From Massilia kyonggiensis (GTDB taxonomy: Bacteria; Pseudomonadota; Gammaproteobacteria; Burkholderiales; Burkholderiaceae_D): 64,000 bases of DNA. The stretch covers positions 19,961 to 83,960 of the forward strand of contig CBIHQW010000007.1 in NCBI GenBank assembly GCA_966212285.1, given 5' to 3'. Under the pieces are notes generated by a model that worked only from the letters and a program-made list of their open reading frames with translations, did no database searches and was not told where the DNA came from. Shown here one piece after another: positions 19,050 to 42,520 of this stretch. The translations under genes were made by a program, and so were the position numbers. Position 1 is the stretch's first letter. The number at the start of each line of letters is the position of its first letter.

Positions 19050-19991
19050 TTAGTGGCTGGCCCAGCCCTTGTAGGCCAGTACGTTCTGCTTGGTGATCGC
19101 GGGGGTCGGAATCAGCACGACCGGGTTGGCCGGCCGCTTGCCGTTCATGATCCCGTAGCCGATGTCGACGGCCATCGTGGCCATCTTGTAGGGGTCTTGC
19201 GCGGTGGTGACGGCGAAGATGCTGTTCTTCGACCTGAGGGCCGCTTCCGCATCCGGCGCGCCGTCGACGGAGGCGACCATCTGCACGTCTGGACGGCCGG
19301 CCTGTTTCACCGCCAGTTCGGCGCCGATCGCGGACGGGTCGTTGATGGCGAAGACGGCATCGATGCGGCGGTGCGCGATCAGCAGGTTCGTCATGACTTC
19401 CATGCCGCCATCGAGGCTGCCCTTCGCATCCTGGTTGTCGGACACGATGCGGATGCCCGTGCCGGCAAAGGCCTGCCTGCAGCCTGCCACGCGCGCGATC
19501 ACGGCGGTGACGGGCGGCCCGTTGACGATCACGACGTTGCCCTTGCCGTGCAGGCGTTCCACGATGCGCTTGCAGGATTCGGTGCCGGCCATCGTGTTGT
19601 CGGACATGATCGTCGCATCCGCGTTGTCCGCGCCGACGTCGACGGCCACCACGACGATGCCCGCATTGCGCGCCTTTTGCAGCACGGGTGCGATGCCCTT
19701 CGGATCGGACGCGTTGACGATCAGGATGTCGACCTTGTTGGCGATGAAGTTCTCGATCTGGCCAACCTGGGTGTTGAGGTCGTACTTGCTGGAGACGGTC
19801 GTCACCTTGACCTTGTCGCCGCCGACCTTTTTCGCGGCGTCAAGCGCGCCCTTGCCGATGGCGACAAAGTAGGGATTGGCGAGGTCGCTGACGGCGACGC
19901 CCACGGATTTCAGCGGCCGCGCCGCCAGCGCCTGGCCGGCCAGCGAGAAGGCGCATGCCGCGATGCACGCGAACACGGCGGATCTGTTCAT
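19050..19991 (-). CDS. Sugar ABC transporter periplasmic binding protein (RbsB-like)
   Basis: Signal peptide; [31 protein letters not shown]. Confidence 0.92.
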
Positions 19992-35882: not shown

Positions 35883-36742
35883 GGTTCCTGATTTTCCTGT
35901 TGTGGCTGCTGCACTTCCTGCCGCTGCCTGTCCTTGGCCGCATCGGCAACGCCGTCGGCTGGCTGATGTATTACGCGATCCCCAAGCGCCGCAAGATCGC
36001 CCTCGTCAACCTGCGCCTGTGCATGCCCGACCTGAGCGAAGCGGAGCGGGTCGATATCGCCAAACGCCATTTCATGGCTTATTCGCGCAGCATCCTGGAG
36101 CGCTCGCTGATCTGGTGGGCGCCGTTCGAACGCATCCAGCGCCTGATCGAGATCGTGCCGAACGTCCCGAAGGAGCAAATGGAAAGCGGCCCGACCATCG
36201 TGTTCTGCCCGCACTTCGTCTGCCTGGACGTGGCCGGCGTGGCGTCCCGCGTGGTGCCGTTGTCGACGATGTATTCGCCGCAAAAGAACAAGGCGTTCGA
36301 CGATTTGTTGCGTTATGGCCGCGAACGTTACGGCCCCGTGCGCCTGTTCACGCGCAGCGACGGCATCAAGCCGATCATCCGCGCGCTACGCGAGGGCCTG
36401 CCTTACTTCATGCTGCCGGACATGGATTTCGGCGAGAAGGATGCCACCTTCGTTCCTTTCTTCAATGTCCCCGCGGCGACTTTGACCGCACTCGGCCGGC
36501 TGGCGGGTGCGACGGGCGCGAAGGTGATCCCGGTCGTGGCCACCTTCTTGCCCAACTACAAAGGTTATCGGGTAGAGTTCTATCCTGCATGGGAGGATTA
36601 CCCGGGCGACGACATCATCGCCGCCACACGCCGCATGAACGCCTTCATCGAGGACCGCGTGCGCGAACATCCGGCCGAATATTTCTGGACCCATAAGCGC
36701 TTCAAGACCCGGCCGCCCGGCGAGCCCTCGTTCTACGATTAA
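35879..36742 (+). CDS. Lipid A biosynthesis acyltransferase (LpxL/HtrB-like, paralog 2)
   Basis: [33 protein letters not shown]. Confidence 0.9.
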
Positions 36743-37617
36743 TGACAGATACCATGAAACTCAAGTTCACCAAGATGCACGGCGCCGGCAACGATTTCGT
36801 CGTGATCGACGCGATCAACCAGCAACTCGACCTCGGCCCGGAACAATGGCGCCGCCTGGCCGACCGCCGCTTCGGCGTCGGTGCCGACCAGATCCTGATC
36901 GTCGAACGCCCCGCCACGGCAGACAGCGACTTCCGCTACCGCATCTATAACAATGACGGGGGCGAAGTCGAGCAGTGCGGCAACGGTTCGCGCGCGTTCG
37001 TCCGCTTCGTCAGCGACAAGGGCCTGACCGACAAGCGCAGCATCCGCGTCGAAACGATGAGCGGCATCATCACCCCGCGCCTGGAAGACGACGGCAGCAT
37101 CACGGTGGACATGGGTGCCCCGATCCTGGAGCCAGGCCAGGTCCCGTTCGATGCGGCCGGCCTGGAAGGCGTCGCCGAAGGCCGCGACACGCTGTGGCCG
37201 ATCACCGTCTCGAACAAGGGCCAGGAACAGACCGTGCTCGTGTCGACGGTGTCGATGGGCAATCCGCACGCGGTGCAGGTCGTGGCCGACGTCGACGCGG
37301 CCCCCGTCCTCGACACCGGCCCGCAGATCGAGCACCACCCGCGCTTCCCGCGCCGCGTGAATGCCGGCTTCCTGCAGATCGTGGACCGCGGCCATGTGAA
37401 GCTGCGCGTCTACGAACGCGGCGCCGGCGAGACGCTTGCCTGCGGCACCGGCGCCTGTGCCGCCGTCGTGGCCGGCATCCGGCGCGGCCTGCTGGACTCG
37501 CCCGTGCAGGTCCAGGCCCACGGCGGCAAGCTGACCATCCATTGGGCCGGCGAAGGCCAGCCTGTTTATATGAGCGGTCCGGCCGAGACCGTGTTCGAAG
37601 GCGAAATCGAGATCTGA
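36742..37617 (+). CDS. dapF: Diaminopimelate epimerase
   Basis: [42 protein letters not shown]. Confidence 0.97.
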
Positions 37618-37624
37618 ATCTGAT

Positions 37625-39214
37625 TCAGGCGGCCAGCGAGTAGTCTCCGTCCGGCGCCGGAGACTCTTCCGGCTCCTCCGTCCCGGACTCCGCGGTCGCC
37701 ATCTCCGGCAACAGGCTGCGCAGCCGGTACAGGCGCTGCCGATAATTCCCTTCCGGTCCCCCCGGACCGCAATCGACGTTCTCGAAGACGAGCGCCACGC
37801 GGTCGAGCAACTGGCGTTCCTGCACCGTTTCCACCGAGATCAGCCGGCGCCGGCTGCGTCCGTAGCTGGCGCGGATGTCGATCACGAGGCAATGGCCGCG
37901 GTCGGCGCTGCGCACATCCAGCAGCAGCGCTTCGGCCCGGCTCAGGCCGAAGGCCACCGCCAGTTCCAGGCGCGCGGCCAGCAGCGGATGGGCCACCAGG
38001 TCGCGCCCCGCGAGCCCGCCCAGGTCCGTCCAGGCGCCGGGCTGGCGCGGCGCCAGCTTGCGCAGCGCGGCGGCAGCCTTGGGACAAGCCTGCGCCGCCG
38101 CCTTCTGCAGCCAGAACAATGCACGCACGTCGTTGTTCTCGTTCTCGCGCCGCGCGCGCCACGCCGCGTTCCCGCATTCGAGCTGGGCATCGCGATACCC
38201 CATCTCCGCCGCGCGCTCCAGGTATTTCTGCGCTTCCACGACATTGCGCTGGGAGAATTCCGGCTTGATATAAATGCGCGACAAGGCGTACCAGGCTTCG
38301 GCCAGGCCCTGCTCGCCGGCCTGCGTCAGCCAGCGCACGGCCTTCTTGAAGTTGGCCGCGCCATGGCTGCCGGGAATCCGCTTGCCGTCCACCCGCATGC
38401 GCGCGCACCACAGGCCGAGCGCGAACTGGGCATGGCGGTCCTGTTCGGCCGCGGCGATTTCCCAGAACCGCAGCAATTCATCCTGGCCGACGTCGTGCGG
38501 CGCGTCGTTCGCGGCGACGAGCCGGGCGCAGCGCGACAGCAGCAGCACCTCGTCCGGCGCCAGGCGAGCGGCCGTGTTGTCCTGGGCGGCATCGGAACCG
38601 GCCAGGGCGCGCGCCAGCGGGAGCGCCCGCTCCAGCCAGGCGGACCAGCGGCCCGCGCTCCAGTCCTGTTCCAGCAGGGCGAACTGGGCGGCGCCGACGC
38701 CGCTGTCGGCCGCCTGGCGCAGCCAGCGCTGGCCCGCGGGGCTGGCCACGGGCGCACGGGCGACCGGCTCGTCCGTCTCGGGCGGCGCGGCGCCGTGCTC
38801 GCGCGCGAGCAGCCACTGCGCTTCCGGGAACCCGGCACGGGCCGCGTCTTCCAGCGCGCGCAAGGCCTTGGCGCGCTGGGCCGGCGTGCACTGGCCGTCG
38901 TTCAGCGCGCCCAGTACCAGCTGTGCATAGACGAGCCCGGCCCGCACGAGGCCGCCGTCGTACGCCAGCTCGTACCAGCCGGTGACCGGTTGCGGACTGT
39001 CACGCGCGAGATCGACCGGAATATGGTTTCCGATCAATTGCCATGCTTCATCGCAACCTTGCTGTGCGGCGCGGTCGAGCCAATGCAGGGCCGTGGGCAG
39101 GCTCTTCGGCAGCCCGGCGCTGCCGAACAGATAGAGCCGGCCCAGGGCCAGTTGCGATTCGACGCGCCCGGCACGCGCGCCGCGGATGACCGCAAGTTCT
39201 TCACGATTTGCCAT
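37625..39214 (-). CDS. Sel1-like repeat protein with an unexplained C-terminal domain
   Basis: Repeats such as SQLALGRLYLFG...ALHWLDRAAQQG, AQFALGLW...AVRWLTQAGEQGLAEAWYALSRIY, AQKYLERAAEMGYRDAQ; no signal peptide. Start taken at MANREEL. Confidence 0.85.
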   Translation of the reverse strand: MANREELAVIRGARAGRVESQLALGRLYLFGSAGLPKSLPTALHWLDRAAQQGCDEAWQLIGNHIPVDLARDSPQPVTGWYELAYDGGLVRAGLVYAQLVLGALNDGQCTPAQRAKALRALEDAARAGFPEAQWLLAREHGAAPPETDEPVARAPVASPAGQRWLRQAADSGVGAAQFALLEQDWSAGRWSAWLERALPLARALAGSDAAQDNTAARLAPDEVLLLSRCARLVAANDAPHDVGQDELLRFWEIAAAEQDRHAQFALGLWCARMRVDGKRIPGSHGAANFKKAVRWLTQAGEQGLAEAWYALSRIYIKPEFSQRNVVEAQKYLERAAEMGYRDAQLECGNAAWRARRENENNDVRALFWLQKAAAQACPKAAAALRKLAPRQPGAWTDLGGLAGRDLVAHPLLAARLELAVAFGLSRAEALLLDVRSADRGHCLVIDIRASYGRSRRRLISVETVQERQLLDRVALVFENVDCGPGGPEGNYRQRLYRLRSLLPEMATAESGTEEPEESPAPDGDYSLAA

Positions 39215-39697
39215 CGTTCTTTTCTTGATGTTAGAGACGTCTAAGAAATGTACGCAGTTCCATGTCGCAAGCACAATGCACGAAGATGCGTGCAGATCGC
39301 CTGCGTTGCGCTACTGATGAGCTCATGTGGCGCGCACTGCGGTAACAATGGACGTCGGATGGGCCAGAGTCTAAAGCCGCGGCGATGCGATTCGGCTGCG
39401 ATTCCAAAGGCCTTTGAGCCCGCACAAACCCTGCCGTGGTACGGGGAGAGAATGATGATGTTTGGAAACTTAAACGAGCCTTAAGGTGCGCCCGGTTTCC
39501 TGGCGTGGCCGTTTCGAAAATACAACAGCACGATTGGTTTTATTGGCTTTCGACCAAGTGCAACAGTCATAATTGACAAATCAGACAATCTTGACGCATT
39601 AAGCATTTAAGGTTCACACATCCGAGTGTTCAGCAACTAATAAAAATCTCAATGCTCTCTGGATTCCTTCGATTCACTTTTTAGGATAAAAATTAAG

Positions 39698-40771
39698 ATG
39701 AAAAAAACCCTCGTGGCAGCCGCTCTGCTGGGCGCATTCGCCGGTGTGGCACAAGCTCAAACCGCCGTCCAAATCTACGGTAACATCGACGTCGGCATGG
39801 TCAAGCGTACCGACCAGACCCTGGCCATCGGCAAGCGTGCTTCCAACACCCTGGGCTTCAAGGGCACCGAAGATCTGGGCAACGGCCTGAAGGCACTGTT
39901 CCAAGTCGAAATGCGTTACGAGCCGGACACCGGCACCAACGAAAACAACGGCCGTCCGCTGTTCCAGGGCCAGACCCGCGTCGGCCTGCAGGGCGACTTC
40001 GGTATGATCCGTCTGGGCCGTGGCCTGACCCCGTTCCAGGAAATCGTCGGTTCGTTCGAACCGTGGCACGGCCTGCCGTCGCCGGCCGGTTTCTACACCG
40101 ACATCTCGGTCGCCGGCTTCAACTCGGCTCCGCTGGACGTCGGCGGCAGCGGCCCGAACAACAACCGTATCTCGAACGCGATCTTCTATAACTCGCCGGT
40201 CGCCAATGGCTTCCAGGTGAACGCTTCGTGGGCCTCGAAAGAAGCCACCGGCGGCGGCGTGACCGGCGTCGGCGCTGGCGCCGCCACCTACGCTGCGGGC
40301 GCACAGGCTTCGGCCAACCCGTTCTCGATCGCTGGTACCTACAACAACGGTCCGGCCGCCGCGATGCTGGCTTACGAGCGCAACGCCGTCGAATCGAAGG
40401 TCTGGTCGGTCGCAGGTTCGTTCTCGGTGACCCCGGAACTGAAACTGATGGGTACCTACTCGCACCAGAACATGGAGCACACCAACACCCAGCGTCCGAC
40501 CATCAAGGGTGCTGAAATCGGTGCGACCTACGCTGTGGGCCCGGGCAAGCTGCTGGCTGGCTTCGGTCTGAAGAAGCAGGAAGAAAACGTCCGCCTGCAC
40601 GACCTGATCACCCGCCAGTACTCGCTGGGCTACGAGTACAGCCTGTCGAAGCGTACGTACCTGTACGTCGACGCGTCGCGCAAGACCAACGTCTTCAACC
40701 AGGCGACCGGCGCATCGGCTGCTACCCCGACCGTCAACCACTACGACATCGGCCTGAACCACTCGTTCTAA
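39698..40771 (+). CDS. General outer-membrane porin (Gram-negative porin family)
   Basis: MKKTLVAAALLGAFAGVAQAQ signal; LGFKGTEDLGNGLKALFQ; YEYSLSKRTYLY; C-terminal Phe. Codon usage (CGT, GGT, GCT) typical of a highly expressed gene. Confidence 0.95.
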   Translation: MKKTLVAAALLGAFAGVAQAQTAVQIYGNIDVGMVKRTDQTLAIGKRASNTLGFKGTEDLGNGLKALFQVEMRYEPDTGTNENNGRPLFQGQTRVGLQGDFGMIRLGRGLTPFQEIVGSFEPWHGLPSPAGFYTDISVAGFNSAPLDVGGSGPNNNRISNAIFYNSPVANGFQVNASWASKEATGGGVTGVGAGAATYAAGAQASANPFSIAGTYNNGPAAAMLAYERNAVESKVWSVAGSFSVTPELKLMGTYSHQNMEHTNTQRPTIKGAEIGATYAVGPGKLLAGFGLKKQEENVRLHDLITRQYSLGYEYSLSKRTYLYVDASRKTNVFNQATGASAATPTVNHYDIGLNHSF

Positions 40772-40809
40772 GCTGAGACTGCGGGGGCAACCCCGCCGTA
40801 TCGCTCGAG

Positions 40810-40850
40810 CAAGGGCGGACCTGGGCAACCGGGTCCGCCCTTGGCTTTTG
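40810..40850 (+). terminator. Intrinsic terminator of the porin gene
   Basis: CAAGGGCGGACC-N10-GGTCCGCCCTTG followed by GCTTTTG. Confidence 0.8.
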
Positions 40851-40932
40851 TGGCACAGTGCAGACAGGAAATCTGCGCCGACCCATTGCTGTCGGTTAAA
40901 ATGAACTTGTCTACCCATCTCGCAAGCCGCAC

Positions 40933-41598
40933 ATGACCGCCGCAACACTGGATTCCGCCGCCATCGCCCAATACCTGCTCGACCATCCGCAGTTCTTCGT
41001 GGAGCACGCCGCCCTGCTGGGCGAAGTGAAACTGTCGAGTCCGCTTACGGGCCGTGCGGTCTCGTTGCAGGAACGCCAGATGGAAGTCATGCGCGACAAG
41101 TACCGCATCCTGGAACTGCGCATGTCCGAGCTGGTGCGCCACGCCGAGGAAAACGCGGCCATCGCCAACCGTTTCCACGGCTGGGCCCAGCAATTGCTGC
41201 GCACCCGCGTGCCGGGCGAGATCCCGGCCGCCGTCGCCGAGGGCCTCGTCAAGCATTTCATCGTGCCGCAAGCGACCTTGCGCCTGTGGAAGCTGGCGCC
41301 CGAGCATGCGGACACGTGGTACACGAACGGCGTCTCCGAGGACGTGCGCCTGTTCGCCAGCAGCCTGCGCGCGCCGTACTGCGGCCCGAACAAGGAATTC
41401 GAAGCGGTCGGCTGGCTGGATGGCGCGGACACCGTGCGCTCGACCGTCCTGCTGCCGCTGCGCGCGAACGGCAGCGCCTTCGGCCTGCTCGTGCTCGGCT
41501 CTCCCGATCCGGAACGCTTCAGCGCCGCGATGGCGACGGATTTCCTCGTCCACATCGGCGAGACGGCCAGCACCGCACTGGCTCCCCTGCTCGGCTGA
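40933..41598 (+). CDS. DUF484 (YigA-like, GAF-like) protein
   Basis: YLLDHPQFF, AVSLQERQ, GLLVLGSPDPERF...ATDFL; immediately upstream of xerC. Confidence 0.88.
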   Translation: MTAATLDSAAIAQYLLDHPQFFVEHAALLGEVKLSSPLTGRAVSLQERQMEVMRDKYRILELRMSELVRHAEENAAIANRFHGWAQQLLRTRVPGEIPAAVAEGLVKHFIVPQATLRLWKLAPEHADTWYTNGVSEDVRLFASSLRAPYCGPNKEFEAVGWLDGADTVRSTVLLPLRANGSAFGLLVLGSPDPERFSAAMATDFLVHIGETASTALAPLLG

Positions 41599-41599
41599 C

Positions 41600-42520
41600 A
41601 TGGACACCCCGGCCGCCGACGACTGGACCGGCCGCTACCTGGCGGAGCTGAAAACGCAGCGCCAGCTGTCCGACCACACGATCGCCGCCTACCGCCGCGA
41701 CCTGGCCGAACTGGCCCGGCTCACCGGCCAGGCCGACTGGGCAACGCTCACCCATTTCGACATCCGCCGCGTCACGGCGAAACTGCACGCCGAGGGCCAG
41801 AGCGCCGCGTCGATCGCGCGCAAGCTGTCCGGCTGGCGCGGCTTCTTCAACTGGCTGTCGCGCCAGCGCCCGCTGGCCGCCAACCCGGCCGACGGCGTGC
41901 GCGCGCCGCGCCGCCCCAAGCGGCTGCCGAAGGCACTGGCCGTCGACGATGCCGTCCAGCTGATGGAAAAGACGACGTCCGGCCACCCGGAACCGGCCGA
42001 GCTGTGCGACCGCGCCATGTTCGAACTGCTGTACTCGAGCGGCCTGCGGGTGTCCGAGCTGGCCGGGCTCGACGTCCACCACGTCCCGGCTTCGCTCGGC
42101 TGGCTGGACCTCGAAGCCCAGGAAGTCATCGTCACCGGCAAGGGCAACAAGATGCGCCGGGTGCCCGTGGGCGGTCCGGCACGCGCGGCGCTGGAAGCGT
42201 GGCTGGCCGTGCGTCCGCCGGCGCGCGACGGCAGCGCCGCGTTATTCCTGTCGGCGCGCGACACGCGCATCAGCCCCCGCGTCGTGCAGTACCGCCTGAA
42301 AGCCCATGCGCAAAAGGCCGGCATGCCGGTCCACGTGCACCCGCACGTGCTGCGCCACTCGTTCGCCTCGCACGTGCTGCAATCCTCGGGCGACCTGCGC
42401 GCCGTGCAGGAACTGCTGGGCCACGCCAGCATCACGTCGACCCAGATCTATACGTCGCTCGACTTCCAGCACCTCGCCGCCGTGTACGACAAGGCCCATC
42501 CGCGCGCAAAGCGCAAGTAG
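41600..42520 (+). CDS. xerC: Tyrosine recombinase XerC
   Basis: All catalytic residues present: GLRVSE (R), TGKGNK (K), HVLRH (HxxR), LGHA, TQIY. Confidence 0.93.
   Translation: MDTPAADDWTGRYLAELKTQRQLSDHTIAAYRRDLAELARLTGQADWATLTHFDIRRVTAKLHAEGQSAASIARKLSGWRGFFNWLSRQRPLAANPADGVRAPRRPKRLPKALAVDDAVQLMEKTTSGHPEPAELCDRAMFELLYSSGLRVSELAGLDVHHVPASLGWLDLEAQEVIVTGKGNKMRRVPVGGPARAALEAWLAVRPPARDGSAALFLSARDTRISPRVVQYRLKAHAQKAGMPVHVHPHVLRHSFASHVLQSSGDLRAVQELLGHASITSTQIYTSLDFQHLAAVYDKAHPRAKRK

Follow-up and report, generated by a model that had tools for sequence, protein, structure and literature searches.

The 64,000-nucleotide stretch of Massilia kyonggiensis DNA that we analysed (positions 19,961 to 83,960 of contig CBIHQW010000007.1; hereafter the window) carries, between dapF and a porin gene, a gene on the minus strand whose product we refer to as the Sel1/Int-like protein. 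It is a cytoplasmic protein composed of a Sel1 α-solenoid of ~390 residues followed by a C-terminal domain of ~107 residues. Judging from sequence comparison, this domain was exapted from an Integrase_1 tyrosine recombinase (PF12835, MpsA-type relaxase-like), of whose catalytic domain it represents the first half. Together with the neighboring Porin_4 gene, the gene forms a two-gene module whose members are gained and lost together.

Architecture of the Sel1/Int-like protein

The gene and the parts of its product are as follows:

37625..39214, minus strand: Sel1/Int-like coding sequence (529 amino acids plus stop) with its ATG at 39214; N-terminus kept family-wide; single-copy in the genome
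38054..39214, minus strand: Sel1-like α-solenoid, residues 1–387, based on the Pfam Sel1 match, PDB sequence matches and helices at 4–387 in an AlphaFold2 (AF2) model
37685..38005, minus strand: C-terminal domain, residues 404–510, by its sequence a truncated first half of an Integrase_1-type catalytic domain (predicted order α-α-β-β-α-α), based on phmmer, hhalign, a reciprocal hidden Markov model (HMM) and AF2
37940..37942, minus strand: Ser425, aligned with the catalytic Arg of box I (AFGL-S-RAE here, AFGL-R-REE in Integrase_1), based on alignments to Integrase_1 and to XerC (GLRVSE)
37862..37864, minus strand: Tyr451, at the position of the β-hairpin catalytic Lys (the Lys of TKGGR), with the basic run GRSRRR directly after it
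37628..37684, minus strand: disordered acidic tail, residues 511–529, net charge −6, ending in DGDYSLAA (ssrA-like), with a predicted local distance difference test score (pLDDT) below 50

Although a longer GTG frame of this open reading frame (ORF) extends to 39274, we took the ATG at 39214 as the start because all homologs share the N-terminus MANREEL.... An earlier reading of the window, made from its letters without database searches (the sequence-only reading), had placed the gene at the same position and strand. It described a protein with Sel1 repeats, no signal peptide and a C-terminus resembling a degenerate tyrosine recombinase, and the C-terminal sequence that it quoted is present at about 37685–38005. 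The Sel1 repeats (PF08238) are the only Pfam match in the protein and score 57.7 bits, against a cut-off of 30.7, in four stretches. PDB sequence matches are to Sel1 proteins only (E 1e-14), and NCBIfam gives weak Sel1-type matches only. The full-length AF2 model (pLDDT 89.8; predicted template-modelling score, pTM, 0.79) comprises an unbroken α-solenoid of helical hairpins at residues 4–387, a domain at 396–510 and a disordered tail at 511–529, with non-helical inserts in the solenoid at residues ~140–158 and 206–219. A hydrophobic signal peptide is not visible in the window protein or in any full-length family member, as the sequence-only reading had also noted; the proteins begin MA(S/N)R..L..I..AR.G, which is already a solenoid helix. 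The GC content reaches 0.78 at 38500–39000, which codes for variable Ala/Pro-rich solenoid inserts (residues ~140–160 and 206–219). The length of these inserts varies widely among homologs, and that of P0039 is much longer.

The acidic tail belongs to a conserved pattern, since the C-terminus reads [LMVIF]AA in 111 of 111 close full-length homologs, often after D.DY. The tag encoded by the genome's own transfer-messenger RNA ends in ...DTSYAQAA, similar in pattern to the DGDYSLAA of the protein. With a free hydrophobic-Ala-Ala C-terminus after an unstructured tail, the sequence has the form of a ClpX C-motif-1 (ssrA-like) degron, and we predict that the tail may be a built-in ClpXP degron.

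The C-terminal domain is strongly conserved. A search with residues 395–529 returned 1,179 cluster representatives, all of them Sel1 proteins of ~520–550 amino acids, and the best 120 of these 1,179 are 70–93% identical to the window protein over those residues. Across 80 Oxalobacteraceae genome loci (Massilia, Telluria, Duganella, Janthinobacterium, Collimonas, Herbaspirillum, Oxalobacter, Undibacterium, Glaciimonas and Rugamonas) the domain is 61–97% identical. At 65% identity across Oxalobacteraceae genera, its conservation equals that of both Sel1 blocks and lies far above that of the mid-protein and tail. In all of the >90 loci the frame is intact, and R415, E428, R457 and R494 are invariant or nearly so among homologs, so that the recombinase-like motif, whose conservation the sequence-only reading had proposed as a check, is indeed retained. 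When modelled alone from an 80-sequence alignment, the domain has a core pLDDT of ~90 and the order α-α-β-β-α-α, which fits the λ-integrase catalytic fold. The same reading had named, as findings that would together speak against it, a predicted structure without an integrase-like fold (for example, more helical repeats) and a motif not conserved among homologs; the model is an α/β domain rather than further helical repeats and the motif is conserved, so that this combination was not observed.

Descent of the C-terminal domain and loss of catalytic residues

Relatives of the domain outside Sel1 proteins appeared at the weak end of a phmmer search, in which the 111-amino acid domain was compared with 1.84 billion representatives and gave 144 matches, mostly the C-termini of ~500-amino acid Sel1 proteins. 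Five of the weakest matches (P0228, P0252, P0258, P0260 and P0265) are instead proteins of 284–427 amino acids, at whole-library E-values of 1e-6 to 8e-4. Pfam assigns all five to Integrase_1, four of them also with Phage_int_SAM_2 (PF12834), and P0228, P0252 and P0265 end in ...ELGH.R..(I/V)T..Y.G. Pairwise alignments extend over ~90 residues, for example LKLQAAFGLRRAEAMLLQPTLADQG...KGGRERMIPIRTAEQRQLLDQAK...SYRQHLY against LELAVAFGLSRAEALLLDVRSADRG...YGRSRRRLISVETVQERQLLDRVA...NYRQRLY in the window protein. For the atypical, MpsA-type relaxases of SGI1-like islands, PF12835 serves as the signature (PMC10484663; MpsA in PMC6414798).

Two alignments were used for profile comparisons, one of 67 fused-type domains (A1) and one of 21 integrases of ~300 amino acids (A4). 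A search of genomes of the order with A1 found ~300-amino acid integrases at E 1e-9 to 1e-13 per genome, and hhalign aligned A1 with A4 over 92 columns at 98.9% probability (E 3.1e-17). As a reciprocal test, an HMM made only from the integrases was run against the 35,791 ORFs (≥90 amino acids) of the genome. It had a single match, namely the Sel1/Int-like ORF (E 1.5e-11), and left the genome's Xer proteins unmatched. The hhalign, reciprocal and phmmer E-values together point to common descent of the domain with Integrase_1. Full-length Integrase_1 genes (~290–340 amino acids, ending in ELGHEREQVTAVYLGR) are present in up to 6–8 copies in some Burkholderiales and Gammaproteobacteria genomes (G006 and G529; loci L093–L110 and L120–L148), and in G006 and G529 this multicopy pattern is as expected for genes of mobile elements.

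Domain libraries do not register this relationship. With the last 135 residues of the window protein, Pfam gave no match at E up to 10, and the Integrase_1 gathering threshold of 23 bits was not reached; with the 67 family domains, neither Integrase_1 nor any other recombinase or integrase model was matched at E up to 1. PHROGs gave no match for three family members, no NCBIfam model matches the C-terminal domain, and an hmmsearch of PDB sequences with the family profile was negative. Because the recombinase models of Pfam miss all 67 domains, public annotation is blind to the fusion. A search of the window genome with PF12835 gave no match, but there was none in 14 control genomes either, so absence of Integrase_1 from the genome is not shown.

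The sequence-only reading had aligned the domain by eye with the XerC encoded in the window. Direct comparison of the two is not significant and by itself provides no evidence (E 77 in BLASTP; E 0.4 when the family profile was compared with XerC by hhalign). The register of that alignment nevertheless stands, as it is recovered through Integrase_1: the family profile matches A4 as given above, and A4 matches the window XerC (E 1e-4) in an alignment that keeps box I, the hairpin Lys, HxxR and LGH...Y in register throughout. A4 also matches IntI4, a solved integron integrase (PDB 2a3v), at box I and HxxR (E 2.4e-4). The idea of a tyrosine recombinase fragment on a cytoplasmic Sel1 scaffold therefore survives, with the kinship shifted: the relatives of the domain are Integrase_1/MpsA-type proteins of mobile elements rather than Xer, as indicated by the hhalign E-value of 3.1e-17.

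Ser425 is assigned to the box I Arg, and Tyr451 to the hairpin Lys, by way of the chain from family profile to Integrase_1 to XerC. Both substitutions agree with what had been read by eye, namely Ser in place of the box I Arg and a missing hairpin Lys. Among the 67 family representatives, the box I column holds Ser in 30, Thr in 13 and Arg in 10, and the hairpin column holds Lys in none (0/67), with the flanking R/K residues conserved. The 67 fused domains have kept their structural core, comprising F, L and the invariant Glu of GL.R.E, together with basic residues of the hairpin and last helix (R457, R492 and R494). Beyond the aligned region only 8–40 residues remain in the fused proteins, against 71–96 in true integrases, where this second half carries HG(L/H)RH and ELGH....T.VY and ends in ELGHEREQVTAVYLGR. 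HxxR, His/Trp II and the nucleophilic Tyr are consequently not present, the protein ending before them; the sequence-only reading, too, had recognised neither HxxR nor a catalytic Tyr. Nor is there an N-terminal SAM-like core-binding domain, since Pfam gives only Sel1 upstream and the AF2 solenoid is continuous. None of the hallmarks of an active tyrosine recombinase (box I Arg, hairpin Lys, HxxR-His/Trp II-Tyr, SAM-like domain) was found. With the box I Arg replaced by Ser, the hairpin Lys by Tyr, and the HxxR/His-Trp/Tyr half absent, the Sel1/Int-like protein, as judged from these alignments, cannot catalyse recombination.

When a tree was built from the shared region, all 67 fused domains were set apart from all 21 integrases by a single long branch (support 100/99), a topology consistent with a single capture of the domain.

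Distribution and pairing with a porin gene

The neighborhood of the gene in the window consists of the following features:

36742..37617, plus strand: dapF (Pfam DAP_epimerase, synteny), left border of the two-gene insertion, convergent with the Sel1/Int-like gene
39215..39697, no strand: intergenic region between the Sel1/Int-like and porin genes, 483 bp, flanked by divergent genes; no Rfam match and no supported RNA fold
39698..40771, plus strand: partner gene, a Porin_4 outer-membrane porin with signal peptide (Pfam PF13609, E 9e-50), divergent from the Sel1/Int-like gene
40933..42520, plus strand: DUF484 (40933–41598) and xerC (41606–42520), identified by Pfam; right border of the insertion, outside the module

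The order metK / lpxL-lpxL-dapF / Sel1-Int / porin / DUF484-xerC / cobW is nearly invariant in the 80 Oxalobacteraceae loci, an invariance that is synteny within that one family only, and the Sel1/Int-like gene is a single-copy syntenic core gene of the Oxalobacteraceae. For comparison beyond the family we used loci L111–L115, L118, L119 and L149–L153. Neither dapF nor xerC was found near the homologs of other Burkholderiales families and of lineages known from metagenome-assembled genomes, within the 5–10 kb flanks examined. An all-against-all comparison of ORFs from 12 lineages left just two shared families, the Sel1-Int gene (12/12) and a Porin_4 gene (11/12); in the twelfth lineage, in which no porin is visible, the locus is cut by a contig end. 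Because the 6.9-Mb window genome has 13 Porin_4 genes, adjacency by chance would be expected in well under 1% of cases per lineage. Porin_4 genes lie on both sides of the Sel1/Int-like gene in L113 (G235:C21), and one genome carries two paralogous copies of the gene pair on separate contigs (L114/L115; G239:C84 and C90). In L153 (2973–6632), where the contig end cuts the upstream side and no porin is visible, the downstream genes encode ExbB, TonB and a TonB-dependent receptor, again functions of outer-membrane transport.

Three genomes of the same family (G009, G288 and G325) lack both the Sel1/Int-like gene and the porin, and there dapF, DUF484 and xerC are directly contiguous. The uninterrupted arrangement is seen in L154, L155 and L157, and only 36 bp separate the dapF and DUF484 matches in L154 (G009). 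The dapF-DUF484(yigA)-xerC operon is widespread, and in the window genome it is split (36742–42520) by the Sel1/Int-like and porin pair. As both genes are absent together and the operon is then contiguous, we conclude that the pair entered, or was lost from, the ancestral dapF-DUF484-xerC operon as one unit. The proximity of xerC is thus a by-product of the two-gene insertion.

The fusion was present in ~12 of 401 genomes in our sample of the order. Among 400 sampled genomes that belong to the class but not to the order, none had the fusion, the only matches there being ~300-amino acid integrases. In the samples searched, the fusion is therefore confined to Burkholderiales.

Relation to known systems and possible function

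Several known systems resemble the Sel1/Int-like protein in part. Closest in descent are the Integrase_1/MpsA-type relaxases of SGI1-like mobilisable islands (PMC6414798, PMC10484663), which have in common with it the AFGL-x-R-x-E helix, the β-hairpin, and the Q-R-x-x-L-D and Y-x-Q-x-L helices. In contrast to these, the Sel1/Int-like protein has a Sel1 solenoid in place of Phage_int_SAM_2, the box I Arg and hairpin Lys are replaced, and the half with HxxR, LGH and Tyr is missing. Moreover, its gene is not carried on a mobile element but is a single-copy core gene of the chromosome, and its domain falls below Pfam detection. TnsF of Tn6022 is an inactivated tyrosine recombinase derivative that serves as a DNA target selector (PMC10293859). 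In Tn6022-like Tn7 transposons it has two recombinase-like domains plus zinc fingers, is encoded on the transposon and selects comM (PMC10293859), whereas in the Sel1/Int-like protein only half of a catalytic domain remains, joined to Sel1 repeats, and its gene has a porin gene as partner. Pieces of tyrosine recombinases also survive as separate non-catalytic modules in the form of MpsB of SGI1 and of the eukaryotic domains ALOG and DUF3504 (PMC6414798, PMC3537659, PMC13465315). In MpsB and ALOG the piece is the N-terminal core-binding domain, whereas the Sel1/Int-like protein, which belongs to a bacterial housekeeping context, has the front half of a catalytic domain. Regulators and adaptors with Sel1 repeats (ExoR, MotX, MerG-like and Hcp/LpnE, to which NCBIfam gives weak matches) share the Sel1 α-solenoid as a protein-interaction scaffold, but they are periplasmic or secreted proteins with signal peptides and no recombinase-derived domain, whereas the Sel1/Int-like protein is without signal peptide. 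The window XerC (41606–42520), whose superfamily fold the C-terminal domain probably shares, is a complete, active-type enzyme (Pfam E 3e-40).

Exaptation of inactive tyrosine recombinase domains is already known from TnsF, MpsB, ALOG and DUF3504. What is new here is the piece that was kept (the front half of the catalytic domain, from a relaxase-type recombinase), its cytoplasmic Sel1 partner, its residence in a vertically inherited chromosomal gene, and the conserved pairing with a porin. The sequence-only reading knew of no description of such a fusion, and we likewise found none of a Sel1/half-recombinase fusion in the literature, nor a model for one in Pfam, NCBIfam or PHROGs.

Our preferred reading, which we put forward tentatively and at somewhat less than even odds, is that the Sel1/Int-like protein acts as a non-catalytic nucleic-acid-binding regulator of the neighboring porin. 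In active tyrosine recombinases, the part comprising box I and the β-hairpin lies on the DNA around the scissile phosphate. We favor a regulator because the retained part is this DNA-lying part, because its basic residues have been kept while the catalytic ones have drifted, and because TnsF provides a precedent; by analogy, we infer that the half-domain would bind DNA. The retained piece, with its basic β-hairpin (R/K-x-K/R-R-R) and YRQR helix, would then serve as a non-catalytic nucleic-acid-binding module and would control expression of the neighboring porin through the promoter DNA or the mRNA leader. The role of the Sel1 solenoid would be to oligomerise the protein or to bind partners and signals. 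Through its acidic tail with the LAA ending, the protein would, in the Massilia clade, be degraded by ClpXP and have a short, regulated lifetime. A fuller version, which we consider possible and hold with more doubt, is a hitherto unrecognised, porin-dedicated family of cytoplasmic regulators in Burkholderiales, with a "half-CAT" nucleic-acid-binding head (half the catalytic domain of a relaxase-type tyrosine recombinase) captured once from a mobile element and, in Massilia, an abundance set by ClpXP through the ssrA-mimicking tail.

A candidate target for a regulator lies next to the porin start, where the nucleotide sequence of ~170 bp (39508–39680) is conserved among genera of the Oxalobacteraceae. 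Within this segment, the conserved blocks read AAAATACAACA, TTTCGACCAA, CATAAT(T/C)GACCAATC (also given as CATAATTGACAAATC) and TTTAAGG, and the segment also contains a direct repeat, TCGACCAA / TTGACAAA, 23 bp apart. We think that 39508–39680 is probably a dense promoter/operator region. A scan for σ70 and terminator consensus sequences gave nothing useful. Examined as a structured RNA, the conserved block upstream of the porin had no Rfam match, and RNAalifold returned −0.86 kcal/mol with no supported fold. By eye only, a short GC-rich hairpin is seen ~40–70 nucleotides before the start codon in most partner porin genes (L111, L113, L118, L149–L152 and L066), for example CATCCG-N8-CGGATG in L118; such hairpins may act as stabilisers of the 5′ leader.

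A number of results weigh against the regulator reading. The TCGACCAA repeat is missing from other lineages, being limited to the Massilia/Janthinobacterium clade, and no operator-like motif common to the different lineages was found. The two genes of the pair can be divergent, convergent or co-directional, and this variability fits a regulator but equally a chaperone or adaptor. The partner porins do not form one orthologous clade relative to the genome's other porins, so that the pairing must have persisted through porin divergence or replacement. The LAA ending is a trait of the Massilia clade and is missing in more distant family members. The net charge of the domain is only +2. A Foldseek search of the AF2 domain model against the PDB returned no chain at E <1, although a half-domain modelled alone may superpose poorly. 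Against BFVD, the matches with the best template-modelling scores (0.3–0.5) were phage integrases, a site-specific recombinase and baculovirus VLF-1, at non-significant E-values of 0.5–2.

Some of the same results suit a protein that works on other proteins only, in which the dead half would cap the solenoid, either as a structural element or as one that binds proteins, and the porin would be acted on at the protein level. Such an adaptor or chaperone might hold or target the cytoplasmic porin precursor, or couple porin supply to another envelope process. Sel1/TPR solenoids are established protein-binding scaffolds, and the full-length pTM of 0.79 suggests that the domain is fixed against the solenoid. 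The low net charge and the lack of a shared operator motif point the same way, and the variable orientation and the replaced type of partner porin would fit a generic relationship with porin clients. Set against this are the basic hairpin and YRQR residues, whose retention during catalytic drift is easier to understand through retained contacts with the phosphate backbone, and the precedents among dead tyrosine recombinases, which are DNA binders. To our knowledge there is also no precedent for a cytoplasmic porin-specific chaperone. An adaptor or chaperone role is a real if minority possibility in our estimation, nearly as likely as the regulator role.

The sequence-only reading had suggested, as one of two possibilities, a Xer/FtsK modulator. 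A role in XerC/XerD/FtsK chromosome-dimer resolution, with the protein mimicking part of a recombinase subunit, we regard as improbable. The gene does lie 2.4 kb from xerC in the window and near xerC in nearly all 80 Oxalobacteraceae loci, and its domain belongs to the same superfamily as XerC. However, direct similarity to XerC is not significant, the Integrase_1 HMM that matches the Sel1/Int-like ORF misses the genome's Xer proteins, and homologs of other families are without xerC or dapF within ~8–10 kb, so there is no conserved link to xerC outside Oxalobacteraceae of the kind expected for a Xer-associated accessory factor. The conserved partner is the porin, and insertion of the pair into the dapF-DUF484-xerC operon explains the adjacency. 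Because sister genomes with xerC lack the Sel1/Int-like gene, Xer function does not need it.

Least probable is a functionless fossil, that is, a decaying integrase remnant, or a chance resemblance or further helical repeat with no role of its own: it would suit the silence of the domain libraries, the negative Foldseek search of the PDB and the loss of the catalytic residues, but it is contradicted by the pattern of conservation (61–97% identity across the whole family, with R415, E428, R457 and R494 invariant), by the intact frame in >90 loci, by the profile statistics (E 3e-17 and 1.5e-11) and by the confident α/β domain, rather than helical repeats, in the AF2 model.

The family implies that half of a tyrosine recombinase catalytic domain can persist for long as an independently folded, strongly constrained housekeeping module. 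It defines a domain family hitherto without annotation, of 144 clusters at 50% identity and >1,100 clusters at 90% identity, and a porin-linked two-gene module in Oxalobacteraceae, Rhodocyclaceae-like and other Burkholderiales that include plant and soil genera as well as gut Oxalobacter. If the protein controls porin expression or biogenesis, it would bear on envelope permeability and on the uptake of nutrients and antibiotics in these bacteria. The family also extends the few known examples of domesticated tyrosine recombinases by one from a bacterial chromosome, and were the regulator reading true, it would represent a new class of DNA- or RNA-binding domain and a new route of outer-membrane permeability control.

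The loci closest to the window are those of M. kyonggiensis, M. phosphatilytica and Massilia sp. PDC64. The outer neighbors are metK, on the minus strand, and a cobW-like gene beyond xerC. Directly upstream of dapF lie two tandem paralogs of a lipid A biosynthesis acyltransferase (PF03279; 35031–36742, plus strand), an arrangement seen family-wide.

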